Source: Atractiella rhizophila (taxonomy: Eukaryota). Taken from it: 47,762 nt of DNA. The notes beneath the pieces are model-generated. The model saw nothing but the letters and a program-made list of their open reading frames with translations. It did not search any database and was not told the DNA's origin. Below are positions 1 to 21,535 of the stretch, in pieces (positions within the stretch are counted from its first letter, which is position 1; every line of letters begins with the position of its first letter). Both the position numbers and the translations under genes were made by a program. The DNA lies in the NCBI GenBank assembly GCA_021432655.1, contig MU271539.1, positions 1 to 47,762 of the forward strand, in the 5' to 3' direction.

Positions 1-2556
1 ATCCTCCTTCGGAATCGTCATTTGTCGAATTGAAACAGATGGCTGATACGACATTTAGGTTCAAGGAGAAGAGTCAGCCTTACAATTATGTCCAGTTCCT
101 CGTTTCTCGCATGCTGGCTGCCGGACCGAAGGAGGCCGTGATTCGGAATGGCACTTGTTTGGGACAATGGTTCCCTGAACAGGTTGTTGAACTTGCGGAT
201 TTCTTGAAGAGGGATAACTGTCGGATTATTATTAGTTCAAAGCAGGAACCGGATGGGGTTAAGTATGATAGAATGGAGGAGAGATATCAAATTGAATATG
301 CCACAGTGGAGATGGACCATGTTCTGGCGAAGGTATTCACCTTCTATCGATTGACAAACTTGTTCTGATGAAGATTTGTGGCCAGGCTTCTGAAACGGTC
401 CCCAGTGATGCATTCGAGATGTTGCCTCCTAATCCCTTTATCCCAAAGGATTTCGAAATCAAGGGACCCATCCCAACCCCGCCTGTGCGCCATCCTCTGT
501 CAGTCCCTGTCGCGTAGCTGATTGACTTGATTGGCCCTACAGAGCCCCAAGCCACCGTCCGTCGTAATGGATAACAAATCGCTTAAGCTCTGGCATAAAC
601 TCGATGACCAATGGGGCGTTCCGAAAGGTGTTATTCATGTGCGGATTAGAAAGTACGTTTTATTCGTTTTCCATCGGTAAACACTTGCAGAAATACCGAT
701 GCCACTCTTTTCAGTCCAAGGACAGATCGTACGCCTAAAGAAGCAGTGAAGACTTCGATGGTCTTCAGCCTCTTCAGCGACCACGTCCAGAGGAAATTTT
801 ATGATGCTATATTGGGCAAGCAGTTTCCCTCCTCTGTAGGCATGGCGCTCATGACGCAAATTGTACAGCGGGTCACTCCTACGGTCTGTCAACGGACCAG
901 GACAATATTCATATCAAAGTTAAAGGGTACAACGAAAAACTTCCAGCCTTGCTGATGCAATTAGTCGAAGAGATAAAGGTTTTCCAACCTACGCCGGAGA
1001 GATTTGGAATCGTGATGGACTGGGTTCGTTTTCCCTTCTTGTTGCATGCTACAACATTTGACTGCATCTTGTAGCATGAAAGGTCCTACAAGAACTTTGC
1101 ACTTCGACGCCCGGATACACTGGCCAGCACTTTCATGGTGCGCTCTGCCTGGAATGATAAGCTCGTCTCATTTCCGTGCTCACGCAGAACTATTTGCTCG
1201 CGGAAGTTTCTTGGCTGCCTTCAGAGGCGCTTAACCAACTGCAGGGTCAGTAGCTTCACAACTAACTAACAATCAAAGCTCACATTAAACTGGTAGATGT
1301 CACTCTTGAAGAAGTACACAGTCACATCTCAGAATTATTAAAGGGATCGAGGACGGAAATGATGCTTCATGGCAATTTTAGCACCCACGTATGAATTTTG
1401 GCATTCTATTTCAATGAATCTGTTGACGCTTAGAGTAGGAAGCCAAAGTCCTTGCAGAGCAATTTACCGGTGCAGTTCCTGGTGATGGCAGCGATAAACG
1501 GAATCCACATAGAACTTACCTGCTACCCGAACAAGGTCGGCCCATCCGTTTTGTAGCGGTGCAGAAGTAGCTGAGCGGGAAAGCAGGTTGTAATTTCGTG
1601 TACCAACTGCCTGGACTTGACGCTGCGAATGTGAACTCTGCCATTGACTTTCGTGTTCAAGTCTGCCTCTCGACCTCTTTCCTGGAGCGCGCCAAACTGC
1701 AACTCATCGGACAAATCCTCTCTGAGCCCGTCTTCGACCAACTTCGAACGAAGGAACAGCTTGGATATATTGTGCACGGTTCTACGAATCTTCACGTTGG
1801 TGTTATGGGTTACAGCATCACAATTCAATCGGAAAAAAGTGCTGGATATTTAGAAGAGCGGATTGAGGCTTTCTACGACATGATGGTTGAAAGATTGGAG
1901 CAGATGAGTGAAGAGGAGATGGAGAAAAATAAGCAAAGTCTGATCGAAGATTTGCTTGAGAAAGACAAGAACATGTATGAGGAGTGCGTCACCCTTCGTT
2001 GCCTTTGTTACAGCTTACAACACTTTATACTGAGCCGTCGGTTAGGATTTCGAATCACTGGCGTCGCATAACAGAAGGCTATTGTGATTTCGAGAAATAT
2101 GAGCGGGACGCAAAGCTCACCAAGAAGCTGACGAAATTCGACATCCTGTCATTTTTCAAAAAGCATTTTCTCCGATCCTCAACGTCGCGACGGAAGCTCT
2201 CTGTCCAGATTCTCTCTCAAACGGTACATGATGACGATCCTATAATGTCGACTTTGCAAAGCCAACTACCACACCCTGCATTGGAGGAGATTGAAAAATT
2301 TGTGAAGACGAGACCACCTATCATCAAGGTGGAGGAAAAGGTGATCCAGGTGTTCGACGAGCACGGCATTCCAGTCGAAGGAAGACAGGGATTCACCAAT
2401 CTGATGAAGAAATTGAAGGAGCCTCCTTCTCTTCTGGAAGGAGTGAAGTTAGTCAGAGATGCCGAGATAAAGGAGTGGCAGAGCACGTTGAAGAAAGGGC
2501 CTATTCCAGAACCGCTGCTGAAGGAACACCTCGAAGTGCTCGAAGCGAAGCTTTGA
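1..2556 (+). CDS. Insulysin/insulin-degrading enzyme-like M16A metallopeptidase (Ste23-like), multi-exon, 5' end outside window
   Basis: Exon translations include KLWHKLDDQWGVPKG and SEPVFDQLRTKEQLGYIV, typical of the IDE C-terminal half, and end ...EVLEAKL* at 2556. About 8 short GT-AG introns join ORFs 30-368, 1598-2071 and 1984-2556. Confidence 0.9.
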
Positions 2557-2748
2557 CAACAGGCAAATATCTTGCAATACCATAGATTTTACTCCAGGAT
2601 CAAAGGAACGGTACCACGAATGCCTCGGGTTGAGGGTCGAAAGAAAAGAAATCGATTTTAAGTTTTCAAAGTATTCTACTCCGCACCTCATCCTCCACCA
2701 CACCATCCATTAGCAGTGACCGGGCAATTACTACTTTTGCGTTGTAAC

Positions 2749-4968
<2,220 letters not shown>

Positions 4969-12865: not shown

Positions 12866-13461
12866 TACTGGACAAGTTCAGCTGCAAGTTGGAGTGCTGG
12901 AGGTTGGAGCAGAGTGCTACCTTATAACAGTGCGCGTTCTAGATCTTCAAGTTAGAACCCGGAAGGAGGCGAGTTCCCGATGCTTCACGCCTTCTGCGGC
13001 GTTTCGGCGGCAACTTTGGGAAGGGAGGGTCCTTGTGAAAGTGCACGGCGCGTCAATCAAACATCATCAAAAACAAACCAGAAACACGGTGGAGCAAAGT
13101 AAGGAGGTAATAAAGAAGTGAAATCCTGCGGGCAATTCATTGATGGTGCCACATCAGTCACAATCATCGGCTTTTCACCAACACTCCGGGACACCTACGG
13201 TACCCCAGAAAGAACCTTTTCGTTCCGATCTAGAAGAGTAAACAAACGGTTGACTTCAACCGCTGCATTGAATGGTGTCATTCAACCACGTATACAGGAT
13301 CGAGACCACTGCAACGAGGCTGGAAGCACCGCCGTGGGCCACGGCTCCTTTACGAAGCAAGGAAGTCAATAAATCTGTCCTGTCAGAGCTGTCAGCCATG
13401 AATGGGCGAGGTATCGTGATTGTTGACTGTAGAACCCCAGAATGACCATGTCACATAAATT

Positions 13462-14082
13462 CTAGTACATTTGCATTGGGCCAGTAGATTGGACATTTGT
13501 AAGCGGAACAGAGGGAGGCATTGAAGGTTGTTGGGGTACAGGTTGTGGAAGGACGGAAAGGAAAGGAGGGATAGGTTGTTGTTGAAAGGGCATCGGTTGA
13601 GTGAGGGGTTGGTGAGGAAGCGACGCGTAAGGCGGAAGAGATACAGGAGGGATGATCGGTTGTTGGATTGGGGGATAGAGAGGTGGAAGTGAATGTCGAA
13701 ACATCATCGATGGTGGCGGTTGCGAAATGGTTTGAGACATCGGAGGAGCCAACGGCGGGATCGTGGCAGGTTGATGAGTGTAGATTGTCGGAGCAGTTGG
13801 TTGTGGAAGTACAGGTGGAGGGACGACAATGGGAGCAACAGGTTGAAGGAGAGATTGTGCGAGGACCGGTTGAGAAGTAGCAGAGGGAGCATATTGTTGT
13901 GCGTCGGATTGAGGGATCGTAGATGGATCAGATTGTTGGAGGTCAGTGTCAGTTGTGATGGTCGAAGGAGCGTGTTCAGGGACAGGTTCAGGAGCGATGG
14001 TGGAAAATTCAGGTTGAGAGACGACAGGTTGAGTTGAAGTATCAGTGGATTCGAGGGTTGAAGGAGATTGAGGCCTTGATTG
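13462..14082 (-). other. 206-codon Pro/Gln/Ser/Thr-rich open frame directly after, and in frame with, the AHA1 stop codon (candidate C-terminal extension)
   Basis: Hand translation from 14082: QSRPQSPSTLESTDTSTQPVVSQPEFSTIAPEP...GPMQMY*, with no stop until TAG at 13464-13462 and no ATG in the first ~114 codons. Confidence 0.6.
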
Positions 14083-15724
14083 TCAGAGGAGGGTTCCGAG
14101 CCTTTAAAGAAACAACGAACAGAATATTAGTACTGCTCTCCATCGAAAATAAATCACCGTTTGAGTGGCCCCGATGGACCGTATAAAAAGGCAGCGATAA
14201 GCCCAACAATCAAGCTGACAGAAATCAAGAAGGGCACTGCGCCAGCAGCGACGAGCCCTAGCTTCCCAAATTTTGGTGGTGGGAGGGTTGTTTGCTGTTG
14301 CGTAGGGGGAAAGGGTTGGACAGCCATAACTGACCCTATTTGCTTCAGCGACTTGATGTAGAAAGCGTCTAGATTTCTTTCTGCTTCGTCCTCCTTCCCA
14401 ACTGGCACTTTCGACAATCGAAGAGTTAAAGTGGTAGAGTCGCTGCCCTGAGACAGAATAGTTGTAAGCTCTCCAAAGTGACCTTCCGGCCATGTCGGCG
14501 CTATAAGCAAGTTAGCAGGTTCCCGAAATGGAAAGTAATGGCGTACCTCGCCATGTTGAGACCATCTTTTTTGGTGCGTCGACAGATATAACCTTCCCAA
14601 CAATGTTGTTACCAAACATGCTGATTTCGGCACCTGGTTCAGGCTTGATCTGCGTTCTCTTCAGCTTTCAAGCTCTATTCACAGAAAGTCCAACCCACTT
14701 TCGCAGGATTCCTCGTCCACATCGGTACCTTGGTTTCGTCCGTCAAGAAGGACCAGAGATCTTCAGCGGTGACCATGAAAGCGCCGTCTACTTTTACAGT
14801 TGACGTGTTAAGAGCAGCAGATTCCGTTTTAGTCGACGGCTTCACACCAGCAGAGCCTGATGGGGCTGGTGATGCCGAAGGCCCAGGGGAGGGTGCAGTG
14901 CCAGCAGGTGTCTGAGCGCCAGACGGGGGCTGAGAGATGGAGTTGGGGTCAACAATCATTTGGTTTCCGTGCGTCTCCATTAGAACCTTCCAGAACACTC
15001 ATTTGTCAGCTTCAGAATGTTTTGCAGATGAAGGACGAACGAACCTTGGGGTACTCATGGAACTTTGCCCGCAAAGCCTTTGAAAGGGTCTTTTTGACAT
15101 TATTCTCAAAGAGATCCTTTGCTTCTTTCTTGGACGAGTTGCAAGTGTATTCGAACGTGTAGTCAGATTCGTCCAAGTCGTGCATAACCTCCAGCGCCGT
15201 TATGTCTCCCGACGCCTTTTCACCGTCCGAAAGGTCGGCTACAGGAGATACAATCAGCGCTGCTTTACAGAAACCGAGGAGAAAGATCACACCTTCCCAT
15301 CTCATCGTGATTTTGAAGTCGTAAATCTATTCAAGACCTAACTTCAGTGCCAGTAGGCGACATGCGAATAAACCCCACCGTGACGACCCTAGTTACCTCA
15401 AATTACTATTCAACGCTTAAGACGCGAGAATAAATGAGACACGCACTTCGCCTTCCTCATTCCCAGTTCGCAAAGTCCCTCGATTTCTCCAACACTTGGA
15501 CAAATCCCTCTTAACCCAGATAACTGACACAACGAACAGACACACCTGTCAATCCTCACTGGACCTTCGGACAGGAGAAGCTCATTTTTAAACCATTCTT
15601 GGCTCCATTTGGTACAATCTGTTGGACGAATCCACGATCTCGTCAGCAGCTGCTACAGTAATGAGAAAAGGTCCTGACCCTTGTTACGCCAGTGCCAATT
15701 CACGATAGTAGAAGACTGAGCCAT
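14083..15724 (-). CDS. AHA1: Hsp90 co-chaperone Aha1, copy 1 (complete, including last exon)
   Basis: MAQSSTIVNWHWRNKDCTKWSQEWFK, GEIEGLCELGMRKAKVVTIYDFKI, and a C-terminal START-like domain (TAEDLWSFLTDE...APTWPEGHF...FYIKSLKQIG). Last intron 14334-14102; last exon 14101-14083 encodes LGTLL*. Confidence 0.93.
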
Positions 15725-15886
15725 TTTGATGATTTTTCCTTGCTCTTCTGCAGAAAAGTCGAGAACACTGCTGGTGGTATGCTGGCGGCTGGAAGATGTT
15801 TGCGCAGCACTTTAGGCACCTGGCTTGCTCCAACCACGAAGCAACTTTCTACCTTTCACTTCCTCTCTTTACTTTTCCCAAAAAAA

Positions 15887-15949
15887 ATGGCTGACGGACC
15901 AGAAATCACACGCCTGAATAGCTAGTGAGCTCTTTTCTCTGCGTTCTAC
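15887..15949 (+). pseudogene. CDC10: Truncated CDC10 fragment (exon 1 plus part of intron 1) cut by the duplication junction
   Basis: ATG GCT GAC GGA CCA... as in the copies at 17712 and 19662, ending at the junction. Confidence 0.85.
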
Positions 15950-15977
15950 ATTAGTACTGCTCTCCATCGAAAATAAA

Positions 15978-17548
15978 TCACCGTTTGAGTGGCCCCGATG
16001 GACCGTATAAAAAGGCAGCGATAAGCCCAACAATCAAGCTGACAGAAATCAAGAAGGGCACTGCGCCAGCAGCGACGAGCCCTAGCTTCCCAAATTTTGG
16101 TGGTGGGAGGGTTGTTTGCTGTTGCGTAGGGGGAAAGGGTTGGACAGCCATAACTGACCCTATTTGCTTCAGCGACTTGATGTAGAAAGCGTCTAGATTT
16201 CTTTCTGCTTCGTCCTCCTTCCCGACTGGCACTTTCGACAATCGAAGAGTTAAAGTGGTAGAGTCGCTGCCCTGAGACAGAATAGTTGTAAGCTCTCCAA
16301 AGTGACCTTCCGGCCATGTCGGCGCTATAAGCAAGTTAGCAGGTTCCCGAAATGGAAAGTAATGGCGTACCTCGCCATGTTGAGACCATCTTTTTTGGTG
16401 CGTCGACAGATATAACCTTCCCAACGATGTTGTTACCAAACATGCTGATTTCGGCACCTGGTTCAGGCTTGATCTGCGCTCTCTTCAGCTTTCAAGCTCT
16501 ATTCACAGAAAGTCCAACCCACTTTCGCAGGATTCCTTGTCCACATCGGTACCTTGGTTTCGTCCGTCAAGAAGGACCAGAGATCTTCAGCGGTGACCAT
16601 GAAAGCGCCGTCTACTTTTACAGTTGACGTGTTAAGAGCAGCAGATTCCGTTTTAGTCGACGGCTTCACACCAGCAGAGCCTGATGGGGCTGGTGATGCC
16701 GAAGGCCCAGGGGAGGGTGCAGTGCCAGCAGGTGTCTGAGCGCCGGACGGGGGCTGAGAGATGGAGTTGGGGTCAACAATCATTTGGTTTCCGTGCGTCT
16801 CCATTAGAACCTTCCAGAACACTCATTTGTCAGCTTCAGAATGTTTTGCAGATGAAGGACGAACGAACCTTGGGGTACTCATGGAACTTTGCCCGCAAAG
16901 CCTTTGAAAGGGTCTTTTTGACATTATTCTCAAAGAGATCCTTTGCTTCTTTCTTGGACGAGTTGCAAGTGTATTCGAACGTGTAGTCAGATTCGTCCAA
17001 GTCGTGCATAACCTCCAGCGCCGTTATGTCTCCCGACGCCTTTTCACCGTCCGAAAGGTCGGCTACAGGAGATACAATCAGCGCTGCTTTACAGAAACCG
17101 AGGAGAAAGATCACACCTTCCCATCTCATCGTGATTTTGAAGTCGTAAATCTATTCAAGACCTAACTTCAGTGCCAGTAGGCGACATGCGAATAAACCCC
17201 ACCGTGACGACCCTAGTTACCTCAAATTACTATTCAACGCTTAAGACGCGAGAATAAATGAGACACGCACTTCGCCTTCCTCATTCCCAGTTCGCAAAGT
17301 CCCTCGATTTCTCCAACACTTGGACAAATCCCTCTTAACCCAGATAACTGACACAACGAACAGACACACCTTTCAATCCTCACTGGACCTTCGGACAGGA
17401 GAAGCTCATTTTTAAACCATTCTTGGCTCCATTTTGTACAATCTGTTGGACGAATCCACGATCTCGTCAGCAGCTGCTACAGTAATGAGAAAAGGTCCTG
17501 ACCCTTGTTACGCCAGTGCCAATTCACGATAGTAGAAGACTGAGCCAT
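15978..17548 (-). CDS. AHA1: Aha1, copy 2; lacks the final acceptor and exon, so only the intron-read-through membrane-tail C-terminus is encoded
   Basis: Near-identical to copy 1. The junction at 15950 falls right after the last intron's branch site (gtactaat), removing aag|G-LGTLL*. Confidence 0.8.
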
Positions 17549-17711
17549 TTTGACGATTTTTCCTTGCTCTTCTGCAAAAAAGTCGAGAACACTGCTGGTG
17601 GTATGCTGGCGGCTGGAAGATGTTTGCGCAGCACTTTAGGCACCTGGCTCGCTCCAACCACGAAGCAACTTTCTACCTTTCACTTCCTCTCTTTACTTTT
17701 CCAAAAAAAAA

Positions 17712-19011
17712 ATGGCTGACGGACCAGAAATCACACGCCTGAATAGCTAGTGAGCTCTTTTCTCCACGCTCTACAAAAAAATTGGGTCTGAGAGGTTACC
17801 TTCGCTAGTGTTGGTTTCGACTCTATCACAAAGCAAATCGAACACAAGCTCCTCAAGCGAGGATTTCAGTTCAACGGTCTGCGATTTCCTACCTCCTGAG
17901 ATGAGTGCTCACAAAATTTCCTGGGAAAAGTCATTGTGGTCGGCCAAACTGGTCTTGGAAAGTCCACGTTGATTAACACCATTTTCGCGTCCCATTTGAT
18001 CGACTCGAAGGGAAGGTTTGAGGCGGACGAGCCTATCCGCCAGACTACTGAGATTCAAGCCGTCTCCCATGGTACGTTTCTCGCGTTTTAAACGAGCCGT
18101 GGGAGGAGGTTGAGGTTCGGTGTTCTGGAACAGTTGTCCAAGAAAACAATGTTACACTCCGACTCAATATCGTTGATACTCCTGGGTACGGAGACTTAGT
18201 CAATAACGAGAACTGGTGTGTTTCCTCTATCATCCAGAGAGACTCTGTTTAAAGGAAGAACAAACAGTTGGGACCCCATAATCAAGTACATCAAGGACCA
18301 GCATTCCGCCTATCTTCGCAAGGAGCTTACTGCCATGCGAGACCGATATATTCAAGACACGCGGATCCATTGCGCGCTCTATTTTATCGCTCCTACCGGC
18401 CACAGCTTGAGGACGATCGATATCATTGTCATGAAGAAGCTTTCGGAGGTGGTGAACGTCGTCCCTGTCATTGCCAAGAGCGACAGTCTCACGCTCGAGG
18501 AAAGACAGAAGTTCAAGGAAACTGTACGCCTTTCTTACACTAACCCGCGTCGTAATCGAACCATGTGAGAGCAGATCCGCGCTGAGCTTGCCCACCACAA
18601 TATTCGGGTCTTCCCCTTCGACAACGACGAAAATGATCCTGAGGAGACGCAACTCAACGAAGCGATCAGGAACATGATCCCCTTTGCGGTCGTTGGTTCA
18701 GAGAGGAATGTGATCATTGATGGAAAACCGGTGAGAGGAAGGAAGAATAGGTGGGGAGTCATCAATGTCGAAAATGAGCAACACTGCGACTTCAACTACC
18801 TCAGGAATTTCTTGATGAGGTTCGCGCTTTCATGTTTATGGGCTATTCGATTGAACACTGATCTGGTCGTCGTGACTGCAGGACTCACCTACAAGACCTG
18901 ATCGAGACTACTGCTCAGATCCACTACGAAGCTTTCAGGTCGAAACAACTACTTGCACTTAAGGAATCGAGTGCGAACAAGGCTGCTCAACAACAACCCA
19001 ACGGTGTTTAG
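17712..19011 (+). CDS. CDC10: Septin Cdc10/Spn2 group, first full copy (3' UTR cut 10 nt after the stop)
   Basis: YVGFDSITKQIEHKLLKRGFQFNVIVVGQTGLGKST (G1), DTPGYG (G3), AKSD (G4), GRKNRWG, and a short C-terminus with no coiled coil. Confidence 0.93.
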
Positions 19012-19021
19012 AGGATGTCTT

Positions 19022-19500
19022 AGATACAATCAGCGCTGCTTTACAGAAACCGAGGAGAAAGATCACACCTTCCCATCTCATCGTGATTTTGAAGTCGTAA
19101 ATCTATTCAAGACCTAACTTCAGTGCCAGTAGGCGACATGCGAATAAACCCCACCGTGACGACCCTAGTTACCTCAAATTACTATTCAACGCTTAAGACG
19201 CGAGAATAAATGAGACACGCACTTCGCCTTCCTCATTCCCAGTTCGCAAAGTCCCTCGATTTCTCCAACACTTGGAGGAATTCCTCTTAACCCAGATAAC
19301 TGACATAACGAACAGACACACCTTTCAATCCTCACTGGACCTTCGGACAGGAGAAGCTCATTTTTAAACCATTCTTGGCTCCATTTTGTACAATCTGTTG
19401 GACGAATCCACGATCTCGTCAGCAGCTGCTACAGTAATGAGAAAAGGTCCTGACCCTTGTTACGCCAGTGCCAATTCACGATAGTAGAAGACTGAGCCAT
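19022..19500 (-). pseudogene. AHA1: 5' fragment of AHA1 (first four exons) truncated at the duplication B junction
   Basis: ATG at 19500; matches 17070-17548 and ends at 19022. Confidence 0.85.
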
Positions 19501-19661
19501 TTTGATGATTTTTCCTTGCTCTTCTGCAGAAAAGTCGAGAACACTGCTGGTGGTATGCTGGCGGCTGGAATATGTTTGCGCAGCACTTTAGGCACCTGGC
19601 TTGCTCCAACCACGAAGCAACTTTCTACCTTTCACTTCCTCTCTTTACTTTTCCCAAAAAA

Positions 19662-20963
19662 ATGGCTGACGGACCAGAAATCACACGCCTGAATAGCTAG
19701 TGAGCTCTTTTCTCTGCGTTCTACCAAAAAAATTGGGTCTGAGAGGTTACCTTCGCTAGTGTTGGTTTCGACTCTATCACAAAACAAATCGAACACAAGC
19801 TCCTCAAGCGAGGATTTCAGTTCAACGGTCTGCAATTTCCTACCTCCTGAGATGAGTGCTCACAAAATTTCCTGGAAAAAGTCATTGTGGTCGGCCAAAC
19901 TGGTCTCGGAAAGTCCACGTTGATTAACACCATTTTCGCGTCCCATTTGATCGACTCGAAGGGAAGGTTTGAGGCAGACGAGCCTATCCGCCAGACTACT
20001 GAGATTCAAGCTGTCTCTCATGGTGCGTTTCTCGCATTTTAAACAAGCCGTGGGGGGAGGTTGAGGTTCGGTGTTCTGGAACAGTTGTCCAAGAAAACAA
20101 TGTTACACTCCGACTCAATATCGTTGACACTCCTGGGTACGGAGACTTAGTCAATAACGAGAACTGGTGTGTTCCCTCTATCATTTAGCGAGACGCTGTT
20201 TTAAAGGAAGAACAAACAGTTGGGACCCCATAATCAAGTACATCAAGGACCAGCATTCCGCCTATCTTCGCAAGGAGCTTACTGCCATGCGAGACCGATA
20301 TATTCAAGACACGCGGATCCATTGCGCGCTCTATTTTATCGCTCCTACCGGCCACAGCTTGAGGACGATCGATATCATTGTCATGAAGAAGCTTTCGGAG
20401 GTGGTGAACGTCGTCCCTGTCATTGCCAAGAGCGACAGTCTCACGCTCGAGGAAAGGCAGAAGTTCAAGGAAACTGTACGCCTTTCTTACACTAACCCGC
20501 GTCGTAATCGAACCATGTGAGAGCAGATCCGCGCTGAGCTTGCCCACCACAATATTCGGGTCTTCCCCTTCGACAACGACGAAAATGATCCTGAGGAGAC
20601 GCAACTCAACGAAGCGATCAGGAACATGATCCCCTTTGCGGTCGTTGGTTCAGAGAGGAATGTGATCATTGATGGAAAACCGGTGAGAGGAAGGAAGAAT
20701 AGGTGGGGAGTCATCAATGTCGAAAATGAGCAACACTGCGACTTCAACTACCTCAGGAATTTCTTGATGAGGTTCGCGCTTTCATGTTTATGGGCTATTC
20801 GATTGAACACTGATCTGGTCGTCGTGACTGCAGGACTCACCTACAAGACCTGATCGAGACTACTGCTCAGATCCACTACGAAGCTTTCAGGTCGAAACAA
20901 CTACTTGCACTTAAGGAATCGAGTGCGAACAAGGCCGCTCAACAACAACCCAACGGTGTTTAG
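19662..20963 (+). CDS. CDC10: Septin Cdc10/Spn2 group, second full copy with native 3' UTR
   Basis: Same exon structure as 17712-19011. The coding differences I found are synonymous. Confidence 0.93.
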
Positions 20964-21535
20964 AGGATGTCTTTTCCACTTACCTTTCTCGACCAACCAA
21001 ATGTTTATCCATTCGTCCTCTCAAAACGTCAGCTTCGTTCGTTTAATCCAGGCTTTTCGTACGGTCCATTTCCAGTTCCGCTGTCTACTCATCTTGTTAC
21101 GTTACATCTTTTGTCAGAGGTGGTCAAAGAGTTTGGCGAAGGTCCAAATTCTGCCTTTTTTGGTTGGGGAGGTCGAATGGGGTTCGCTGTTCGCTCAAAG
21201 TTGAGTACGTTGAGTGGTAGGAGACGCAGAGTGGTTATACCCTTACTCTTTGGTTAATGCATTCGATTTATTCTTCAACCTTCAATGTGGCAAAGCAGAA
21301 TGGAATGCTACTCGTGCCTTCCTCCTTCCATGAAGCTTGAAGCTTGAAACATGTGGATTTCGAGTTCGAGGACAAAGAGTGAGGAAAAGCTTGAGGAAAG
21401 GAAAGTATTGAAGCATCGCATTGATGCTATTCACATCAGTTTCCGCCACTTTTCGTTTTTAGGTCACAGGTATGTAATTAACATGTTTGTGCAAACATGT
21501 ATTTCACAAGTTGTGAAAGAGTGACAAAAAATTAT

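Follow-up and report, generated by a model that had tools for sequence, protein, structure and literature searches.

Among known accelerators of the Hsp90 ATPase, Aha1 is the strongest, and it is regarded as a soluble cytosolic factor. Attachment to membranes is described for another Hsp90 co-chaperone, the animal protein FKBP8 (FKBP38), which is held at the membrane by a C-terminal tail anchor and brings Hsp90 to membrane-proximal clients, according to the available part of a paper that, in that part, treats AHA1 only as a soluble co-chaperone (PMC13470449). Control of a membrane helix by splicing is known from PTC7 of Saccharomyces cerevisiae and other Saccharomycetaceae, where a retained intron encodes a transmembrane helix and alters localisation; different species retain this capacity, and in one of them the two forms are divided between a pair of duplicates (PMC3597508, in whose available portion AHA1 is mentioned nowhere). 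Titles and opening lines of abstracts in the literature gave no description of an anchored Aha1. Here we analyse AHA1 of the fungus Atractiella rhizophila, which lies in a stretch of 47,762 nucleotides (nt) of contig MU271539.1 (GenBank assembly GCA_021432655.1, positions 1 to 47,762; the window hereafter) and whose last intron carries, in frame, a predicted tail anchor. The anchor that retention of this intron would add, conserved in many fungi, points to an unrecognised membrane-bound form of Aha1.

The gene occupies 14083..15724 on the minus strand (copy A, to distinguish it from a duplicate discussed below), with its ATG at 15724 and the stop codon of the spliced form, TGA, at 14085-14083, as established from Pfam matches, deposited proteins and RNA joints. 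Deposited A. rhizophila proteins match the translated last exon at 100%, and the precomputed domains of the whole deposited proteins P0002 and P0003 include both Aha1_N and AHSA1 (PF08327). In the exon translation of 15012-15326, Aha1_N (PF09229) was found with an E-value of 1.4e-13 and 51.7 bits against a cut-off of 23.6; on the last-exon piece alone, AHSA1 scored 19.7 bits, under its cut-off of 22.1, because this piece covers just the final 54 positions of the profile. The Atractiella protein is 43-51% identical to annotated fungal Aha1 proteins, which suggests that it stimulates the Hsp90 ATPase, and an AlphaFold2 model of the 380-residue unspliced form, built on alignment A1, has a predicted local distance difference test score (pLDDT) of 80-94 across both Aha1 domains.

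The last intron (14102..14334, minus strand) is 233 nt long and interrupts the Gly codon of KQIG in phase 2. The upstream exon terminates at 14335 with ...AAG CAA ATA GG and is followed by the donor GTCAGT; the acceptor is ttaaag, and a branch-point-like gtactaat (14126..14133, minus strand) is located 25 nt before it. Behind the acceptor, a terminal mini-exon (14083..14101, minus strand) composed of G plus CTC GGA ACC CTC CTC TGA encodes (G)LGTLL and a stop. In unspliced RNA the frame instead continues into a tail open reading frame (ORF; 14154..14333, minus strand) of 59 codons (14333..14157) closed by a TGA at 14156-14154. Its translation is SVMAVQPFPPTQQQTTLPPPKFGK, which includes a Pro/Gln linker, followed by the hydrophobic segment LGLVAAGAVPFLISVSLIVGLIAAFLY (14181..14261, minus strand), a predicted membrane span, and then by GPSGPLKR and the stop.

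RNA data, comprising Logan assembled contigs from four runs (X22, X1, X6 and X3) placed on 13000-15960, carry the exact spliced joint in every run: 14335 is joined to 14101, skipping 233 letters that read CT..AC on the plus strand, at depths of 594.7 (X22), 8.76 (X1), 6.96 (X6) and 6.18 (X3). The major messenger RNA (mRNA) therefore encodes the canonical LGTLL end. Neighbouring introns of 46, 49, 58, 54, 51 and 60 nt are likewise removed in RNA contigs. Next to the spliced joint, X22 contains a single 205-nt contig that spans 14136-14340 without mismatches at a depth of 91.6 versus 594.7 for the spliced form, approximately 13% of spliced plus unspliced depth. This is the sole intron-containing AHA1 RNA, present in one of the four runs and isolated from the exon contigs. 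The other 3' introns (14501-14546, 14650-14698 and 14983-15040) have zero cover in X22 by bin arithmetic, which indicates that genomic DNA contamination is not the source of the intron contig.

Hydrophobicity was assessed with 19-residue Kyte-Doolittle windows. The best window of the 380-residue form scores 2.56 and starts at residue 353, leaving nine residues after it (GPSGPLKR, net +2), and there is no other hydrophobic window (residues 1-321 reach 0.74 at best on this Kyte-Doolittle scale). The unspliced product therefore has the layout of a tail-anchored protein, with one segment near the C-terminus, a short end after it and two domains of cytosolic co-chaperone type before it. An earlier reading of the window from its letters alone (the sequence-only reading) had noted the 233-nt intron with its donor, branch and acceptor, the short introns nearby, the spliced end KQIG-LGTLL, the 59-codon unspliced frame with its Pro/Gln linker, hydrophobic run and PSGPLKR end, and the one hydrophobic segment at the C-terminus, followed by a short basic end; as a description of the sequence, it is confirmed in every detail.

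That reading had also proposed that orthologous last introns be compared for a conserved hydrophobic segment, and this comparison came out positive, both in related DNA and in annotated proteins. Metagenome contigs were scanned once with protein alignment, which yielded eight loci (L001-L008). The whole intron is covered in three distinct DNAs, L001 (with its near-duplicate L002), L008 and L003, whereas L004 and L005 run off within the tail; a C-terminal motif search of L006 and L007, both of which stop before the gene end, found none. The nearest proteins are from Rhodotorula for L001 and Sporobolomyces for L008, while L003 is identical to a rust-like protein, P0008. In all three intron-covering DNAs the donor lies in the same Gly codon (GG/GTTAGG or GG/GTTAGC) and is followed by an in-frame tail of 73, 94 and 77 codons in L001, L008 and L003, respectively, each ending in a hydrophobic segment. 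The tail stop is separated from the acceptor by 110, 131 or 306 nt, and behind the acceptor stands a mini-exon encoding N+LGAML, LGAIL or LGTIL and a stop. The coding capacity of the intron is thus kept across species, in three of three DNAs, and is accompanied by codon bias (below).

L003 equals residues 138-394 of P0008 at 100% and resembles complementary DNA (cDNA): its upstream frame is uninterrupted, the full 541-nt intron and the mini-exon are kept, and its end is A-rich. P0008 is itself a complete frame of 394 residues on a 1366-nt contig, and another rust-like protein, P0013, with approximately 50% identity to the Atractiella protein, represents the spliced form of 322 residues, complete on 1331-nt contigs. 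On its cDNA-like appearance, L003/P0008 would be a retained-intron transcript of a rust. A different route is suggested by the Microbotryomycetes-like loci L001 and L008, in which a strong GTGAGT follows the tail stop at a distance of 45 and 37 nt, respectively; these yeasts could therefore produce the anchored form by choosing a downstream 5' splice site instead of simply retaining the intron, and the mRNA for that form could remove the GTGAGT intron from its own 3' untranslated region (UTR). Between tail stop and mini-exon, both loci contain a short stretch with intron-like GTGAGT...CTGAY...CAG letters (4405-4476 in L001, about 4525-4617 in L008).

The tails were compared with chance by 5000 dinucleotide shuffles of each intron. 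An open frame of at least 59 codons arose in 516 of the Atractiella shuffles, but only 2 matched both the frame and the observed hydrophobicity of 2.56. For the relatives, ORF length and hydrophobicity were reached together in 1 (L001), 8 (L008) and 38 (L003) of 5000 shuffles, and an open frame of the observed length in 1217 of 5000 for L001. The hydrophobic tail is therefore more than a product of chance. Composition also distinguishes the tail from the remainder of the intron. In Atractiella its GC content is approximately 0.54, compared with 0.29 over the 52 nt that follow the tail stop, and in the GC-rich L001 the GC content of third codon positions (GC3) goes from 0.93 in the upstream exon to 0.88 in the tail, whose hydrophobic part has 0.93, and drops to 0.64 past the tail stop. 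This coding-type, exon-like bias of the L001 tail appears to be a signature of translated sequence. Nonsynonymous and synonymous divergence (dN/dS) was 0.36/1.13 over the last 40 codons of L001 versus L008, the only usable pair, as dS was saturated or undefined in most others.

Annotated proteins, which are mostly unreviewed gene predictions, show a similar division into tailed and short forms. Among 78 proteins with a basidiomycete-type ..xIG motif, 50 have a long tail in which a hydrophobic window scoring 1.5 or more lies no further than 30 residues from the C-terminus; 22 terminate in LG(T/S)xL and 6 are of other types. Tailed Pucciniomycotina include Puccinia, Austropuccinia, Microbotryum, Rhodotorula, Rhodosporidiobolus, Sporobolomyces, Meredithblackwellia and a cystobasidiomycete, and tailed Agaricomycotina include Rhizoctonia/Ceratobasidium, Hypsizygus, Agaricus, Sistotremastrum, Serendipita, Kwoniella and Phaffia; Melampsora, Cronartium, Rhodotorula toruloides, Laccaria, Mycena and Rickenella are among those with short forms. 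A second search, seeded with tailed proteins that lack the motif, returned 115 more proteins from early-diverging fungi, of which 31 are tailed. Around 30 of these belong to Mortierellomycota and carry the nearly invariant GAGLAVLTAFALGFWFSKK, and all 31 tails begin with G/YV. Further tailed proteins come from Ambispora, Dispira, Nowakowskiella, Basidiobolus and Jimgerdemannia, and both lengths are annotated in Linnemannia elongata, a short form (P0267) and long ones (P0230, P0244). Aha1 is short in Mucorales and most chytrids, and among the matches listed the tailed form is missing from Mucorales-type and ascomycete-like short forms. To our knowledge, the ascomycete models used for work on Aha1 have no anchored form.

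Within lineages the tails are well conserved. Those of Pucciniomycotina align and share the end ...(Y/W)(Y/K)GP(S/T/N)G..., of which YGPSGP in Atractiella is one instance; Microbotryomycetes have AAFYYGPSGPGGKK, as Mortierellomycota have the motif already mentioned. In the annotated tails the hydrophobic segment always stands at the very end of the frame and is followed by a basic end. Median values of the hydrophobic window, of residues after it, of net charge after it and of net charge in the 25 residues before it are 1.83, 11, +2 and +5 for Pucciniomycotina, 2.31, 5, +1 and +3 for Agaricomycotina-like tails, and 1.61, 3, +2 and +9 for Mortierellomycota. Agaricomycotina tails, like those of Mortierellomycota, start with G/YV, as expected if a donor GTATGT or GTACGT in that codon phase were read through, and this dipeptide in annotated proteins suggests that both groups have an intron at the same position. 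An in-frame anchor at the same Gly-codon intron thus occurs in other Pucciniomycotina and, judging from annotated proteins, also in Agaricomycotina, Mortierellomycota and scattered early-diverging fungi, which would make the feature much older and wider than the sequence-only reading supposed. Several other Aha1 proteins (P0123, P0132, P0180 and similar) end in ..FGYVI or ..FGYVM, as though a GTATGT-type donor had been read through into a short intron, giving misannotated ends at the same position. Some annotated tails (P0230 and P0240 of Linnemannia elongata) end in canonical residues (..AFALGFCFGAGL), and in P0306 a canonical YGASF precedes the tail, which may reflect additional splice or read-through variants, or else artefacts of prediction.

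From these data we consider it probable that AHA1 has two C-termini from one 3' end, a soluble one made by splicing and a tail-anchored one made by intron retention, and that this is a conserved design. The existence of two C-termini, one of them a conserved tail anchor, is well supported by the comparative and RNA evidence, and the interpretation given by the sequence-only reading is, overall, partly supported, the splicing toggle that it proposed being conjectural. As the major outcome, splicing of the last intron joins KQIG to the five-codon mini-exon and gives an ordinary soluble Aha1 ending in LGTLL. When the intron is kept, translation would run through the Pro/Gln linker into one hydrophobic helix and a short basic end, and this tail anchor would hold both Aha1 domains at the cytosolic face of a membrane. 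The anchored form would then act locally, accelerating the Hsp90 ATPase at the membrane on which clients are folded or handed over by Hsp90. The data show the splicing itself, the intron's capacity to code and the conservation of that capacity, and a codon bias of coding type; for the retained form, we infer translation, membrane insertion and function alike.

Tail-anchored proteins with moderate hydrophobicity and a short basic end tend to be sorted to the mitochondrial outer membrane, and those with a more hydrophobic span to the endoplasmic reticulum (ER). Because the segment is moderately hydrophobic and its end dibasic, we lean, at somewhat less than an even chance, towards the outer membrane of mitochondria, and do so for Pucciniomycotina-type and Mortierella-type tails; the ER or nuclear envelope is a plausible but less favoured target, and other membranes may also be considered. 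On a wider view, which we advance tentatively and rate a little below even, tail-anchored Aha1 would be an ancient and widely kept second product of fungal AHA1, from Mortierellomycota and scattered early-diverging fungi to Basidiomycota, acting as an accelerator on an organelle surface. It would arise when the last intron is left unspliced or, in Microbotryomycetes, via a downstream 5' splice site. The mitochondrial outer membrane would again be favoured, as the place where Hsp90 delivers precursors to an import receptor and where client release would be triggered, and duplicates such as copy B of Atractiella or the Basidiobolus pair would represent a subfunctionalised end state.

Several points weigh against a two-ended AHA1 of this kind. 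The X22 intron contig extends no more than 6 nt into the exon and ends at 14136, so that 14101-14135 is uncovered, and it shares no k-1 overlap with exon contigs, unlike neighbouring contigs elsewhere; its membership in a full-length mRNA therefore does not follow. As copies A and B do not differ anywhere along its length, it is also not assignable to either. X1, X6 and X3 are without an intron contig, although at a depth of 6-9 a form amounting to 13% is not expected to be visible, and since the runs are assembled contigs, ratios are rough and condition-dependence is unreadable. The donor GTCAGT is not callable weak, because the first AHA1 intron uses GTCAGG and has no intron cover, and an argument from a weak donor was dropped for Atractiella. 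The AlphaFold2 model is uninformative for the tail, where pLDDT stays below 50 and the sole helix is a short one at 364-371. The protein search profiles contained tails (9 of 13 rows in A1 and 7 of 7 in A2), so tailed matches were favoured and the counts above are not frequencies. Finally, the tails of Pucciniomycotina, Agaricomycotina-like fungi and Mortierellomycota have no detectable mutual similarity (hhalign probability 0.7-3.9%, with some rows of the Pucciniomycotina group truncated by the motif pattern), and a single origin is therefore not inferable.

The assembly contains further AHA1 sequence upstream of copy A. Copy B (15950..17775, minus strand), identified by self-BLAST and a repeat finder, is a tandem duplicate 99.2% identical to 14126-15950, which constitutes one tandem unit; the period is 1824 nt and copies A and B have 15 differences. 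The duplication boundary falls immediately after gtactaat, and copy B therefore has the tail ORF and its stop, with no acceptor and no LGTLL mini-exon; if real, it would have the anchored form as its sole possible product. Nested with the first unit is a second one, 1952 nt long (17070-19021, repeated with 98.2% identity at 19022-20973), which repeats 5' AHA1 together with the start of the neighbouring divergent septin gene and includes a partial third copy, copy C (19022..19724, minus strand), consisting of the 5' part of AHA1. These nested duplications of 98-99% identity could be real or could be an assembly or haplotype artefact. In all four runs the expressed allele is a mosaic, with copy-B letters at 14400, 14602 and 14921 and the copy-A letter at 14714, and at 14469 and 14590 all four read, at full depth, a T and a G found in neither assembled copy. 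Both deposited Atractiella models end in PSGPLKR and carry RIESVGE, where copy A has RIDSVGE and copies B and C have the other letter; a model ending in LGTLL was not found among the A. rhizophila proteins returned by protein searches. The tandemly duplicated AHA1 of this assembly, with an upstream copy that lacks acceptor and mini-exon, is new here.

Such a duplicate raises the alternative that the anchored form of Atractiella comes from copy B, which would be hard-wired for it after losing acceptor and mini-exon, that copy A is simply spliced, and that the two subfunctionalised after duplication. Copy B is indeed almost identical to copy A and breaks off right after gtactaat, and the stop of the X22 intron contig at 14136 corresponds to 15960 in copy B, 10 nt before A and B diverge and short of the copy A acceptor. 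The deposited models also end in PSGPLKR and carry RIESVGE in place of the RIDSVGE of copy A, Basidiobolus has separate tailed long (P0100, P0211) and short (P0209, P0213) Aha1 proteins, and duplicates that each keep one isoform are known for PTC7 and SKI7/HBS1 in the available part of the PTC7 paper (PMC3597508). Against this stand the possible artefactual origin of the nested, 98-99% identical units, the mosaic of A and B letters, plus two of neither, in all four runs, and an X22 depth of zero over 15871-15960, where a copy-B transcript would continue. L001 and L008, with flanks of at least 3 kb, have one AHA1 each, and the conserved mini-exon behind the relatives' tails shows that one gene with two ends is the general state. 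We therefore regard an origin from copy B as unlikely.

Two further alternatives question whether an anchored protein is made at all. The intron RNA may be a splicing by-product or unspliced precursor, the tail being a conserved coding relic rarely or never translated in Atractiella. The isolation of the intron contig from exon contigs would suit this, as would the predominance of the spliced form in every run, and the contig ends 8-10 nt before the branch-like site, lacking the 3' part of the intron as the body of a debranching-resistant lariat would. A lariat, however, would not contain the six exon letters that the contig carries 5' of the donor without mismatch, and no other AHA1 intron gave a contig in X22. 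A decayed relic would also not be expected to keep the ...YGPSGP... motif of Pucciniomycotina, and the exon-like GC of the tail (against 0.29 behind its stop) and its 2 in 5000 shuffles speak for a coding tail; we judge this explanation improbable. Less probable by far is that the hydrophobic frame merely follows from U-rich intron composition, with gene predictors preferring long frames and no anchored Aha1 anywhere. Frames of this length are common in shuffles (516 and 1217 of 5000 for Atractiella and L001), and the tailed proteins are mostly unreviewed predictions, yet composition-preserving shuffles almost never gave the hydrophobic segment (2, 1, 8 and 38 of 5000). Neither the GC3 of 0.93 with which L001 codes for it, nor the motifs conserved within Microbotryomycetes (AAFYYGPSGPGGKK) and Mortierellomycota (GAGLAVLTAFALGFWFSKK), nor its constant position at the frame end before a basic end fits such a by-product.

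A third C-terminus from the same 3' end had been proposed by the sequence-only reading, and this was not supported. The frame in question, 206 codons directly behind the LGTLL stop (14082-13465, with TAG at 13464-13462), falls within the 3' UTR of the spliced mRNA (13440..14082, minus strand), which extends some 640 nt past the mini-exon to about 13440; RNA contigs from 14100 reach 13443 (X6), 13437 (X1), 13450 (X3) and 13332 (X22). This pyrimidine-rich UTR is open in all three minus-strand frames and gives no Pfam match, and the corresponding frame in the three relatives is only 4, 42 and 33 codons long. The 206-codon frame was therefore read as non-coding, and a further C-terminus was rejected as unsupported. 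Within the UTR, the summed contig depth in X22 is 1500-3400 over 13495-13791, several times the AHA1 exon depth of 594.7, with up to three contigs per place, possibly reflecting allelic contigs, low-complexity words or another transcript. An Rfam scan of 13900-14500 at E-values up to 1 gave no matches, and thus nothing to suggest an intron-hosted snoRNA of a known family.

The remaining structure of copy A was derived from RNA joints supported by up to four of four runs. On the minus strand, the 5' introns lie at 15678-15619, 15545-15495, 15445-15388, 15379-15328 and 15292-15239, and the 3' introns at 15040-14983, 14698-14650, 14546-14501 and 14334-14102. Between two of the former is an 8-nt micro-exon (15380..15387, minus strand), GTCGTCAC on the coding strand, which codes for ..VVT..; it is indicated by the joint 15327->15446, which has eight letters between its sides in X22, X1 and X6. 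Upstream of the gene, at 15842-15924 and at the corresponding places before copies B and C, X1, X6 and X3 have contigs of 1237-1335 nt that end and continue into letters matching the septin side at about 17790-17830. These look like the spliced 5' exon of a divergent septin mRNA that overlaps the AHA1 upstream region.

If the two-ended design holds, many fungi, including rusts, Microbotryum, red yeasts, mushrooms and Mortierella, would control where, and not only when, Hsp90 is driven through its cycle, and the AHA1 intron would be the second deeply conserved fungal intron to code for a membrane helix, after that of PTC7. It would also explain why fungal Aha1 proteins fall into two length classes in databases, of approximately 320 and 390 residues, neither being simply a misannotation.

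The spliced product corresponds to canonical soluble Aha1/AHSA1, with the same two domains and an LGTLL end resembling LGTIL, LGSML and FGFGAVL of other fungi, whereas the predicted tailed form has a membrane segment, which is not described for the canonical protein. Minor variants that alter only the extreme C-terminus, and hence the compartment, reportedly occur in the same phylum: glycolytic enzymes of Ustilago are said to acquire cryptic peroxisomal targeting via alternative splicing or stop-codon read-through, although there a tripeptide import signal is added to a matrix protein, and in AHA1 a whole membrane anchor. With FKBP8, as far as the available part of its description goes, the tailed Aha1 shares the combination of Hsp90 co-chaperone and C-terminal tail-anchor helix, predicted in the case of Aha1. 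FKBP8 differs in binding Hsp90 through a TPR domain, in being constitutively anchored and in its unrelated sequence and fold, and it is Aha1, unlike FKBP8, that stimulates the ATPase via its N- and C-domains. The closest parallel is PTC7, in which, to judge from the available portion of that work, one gene likewise gives two proteins by splicing or keeping an in-frame intron with a single predicted helix. The PTC7 intron lies near the N-terminus, comprises 3n nucleotides without a stop and encodes an internal helix, while that of AHA1 is the last intron, brings its own stop and replaces a five-residue end with a C-terminal tail anchor. The two also differ in reach, the AHA1 tail being found across fungal phyla and the PTC7 helix, in the same portion, within one yeast family.

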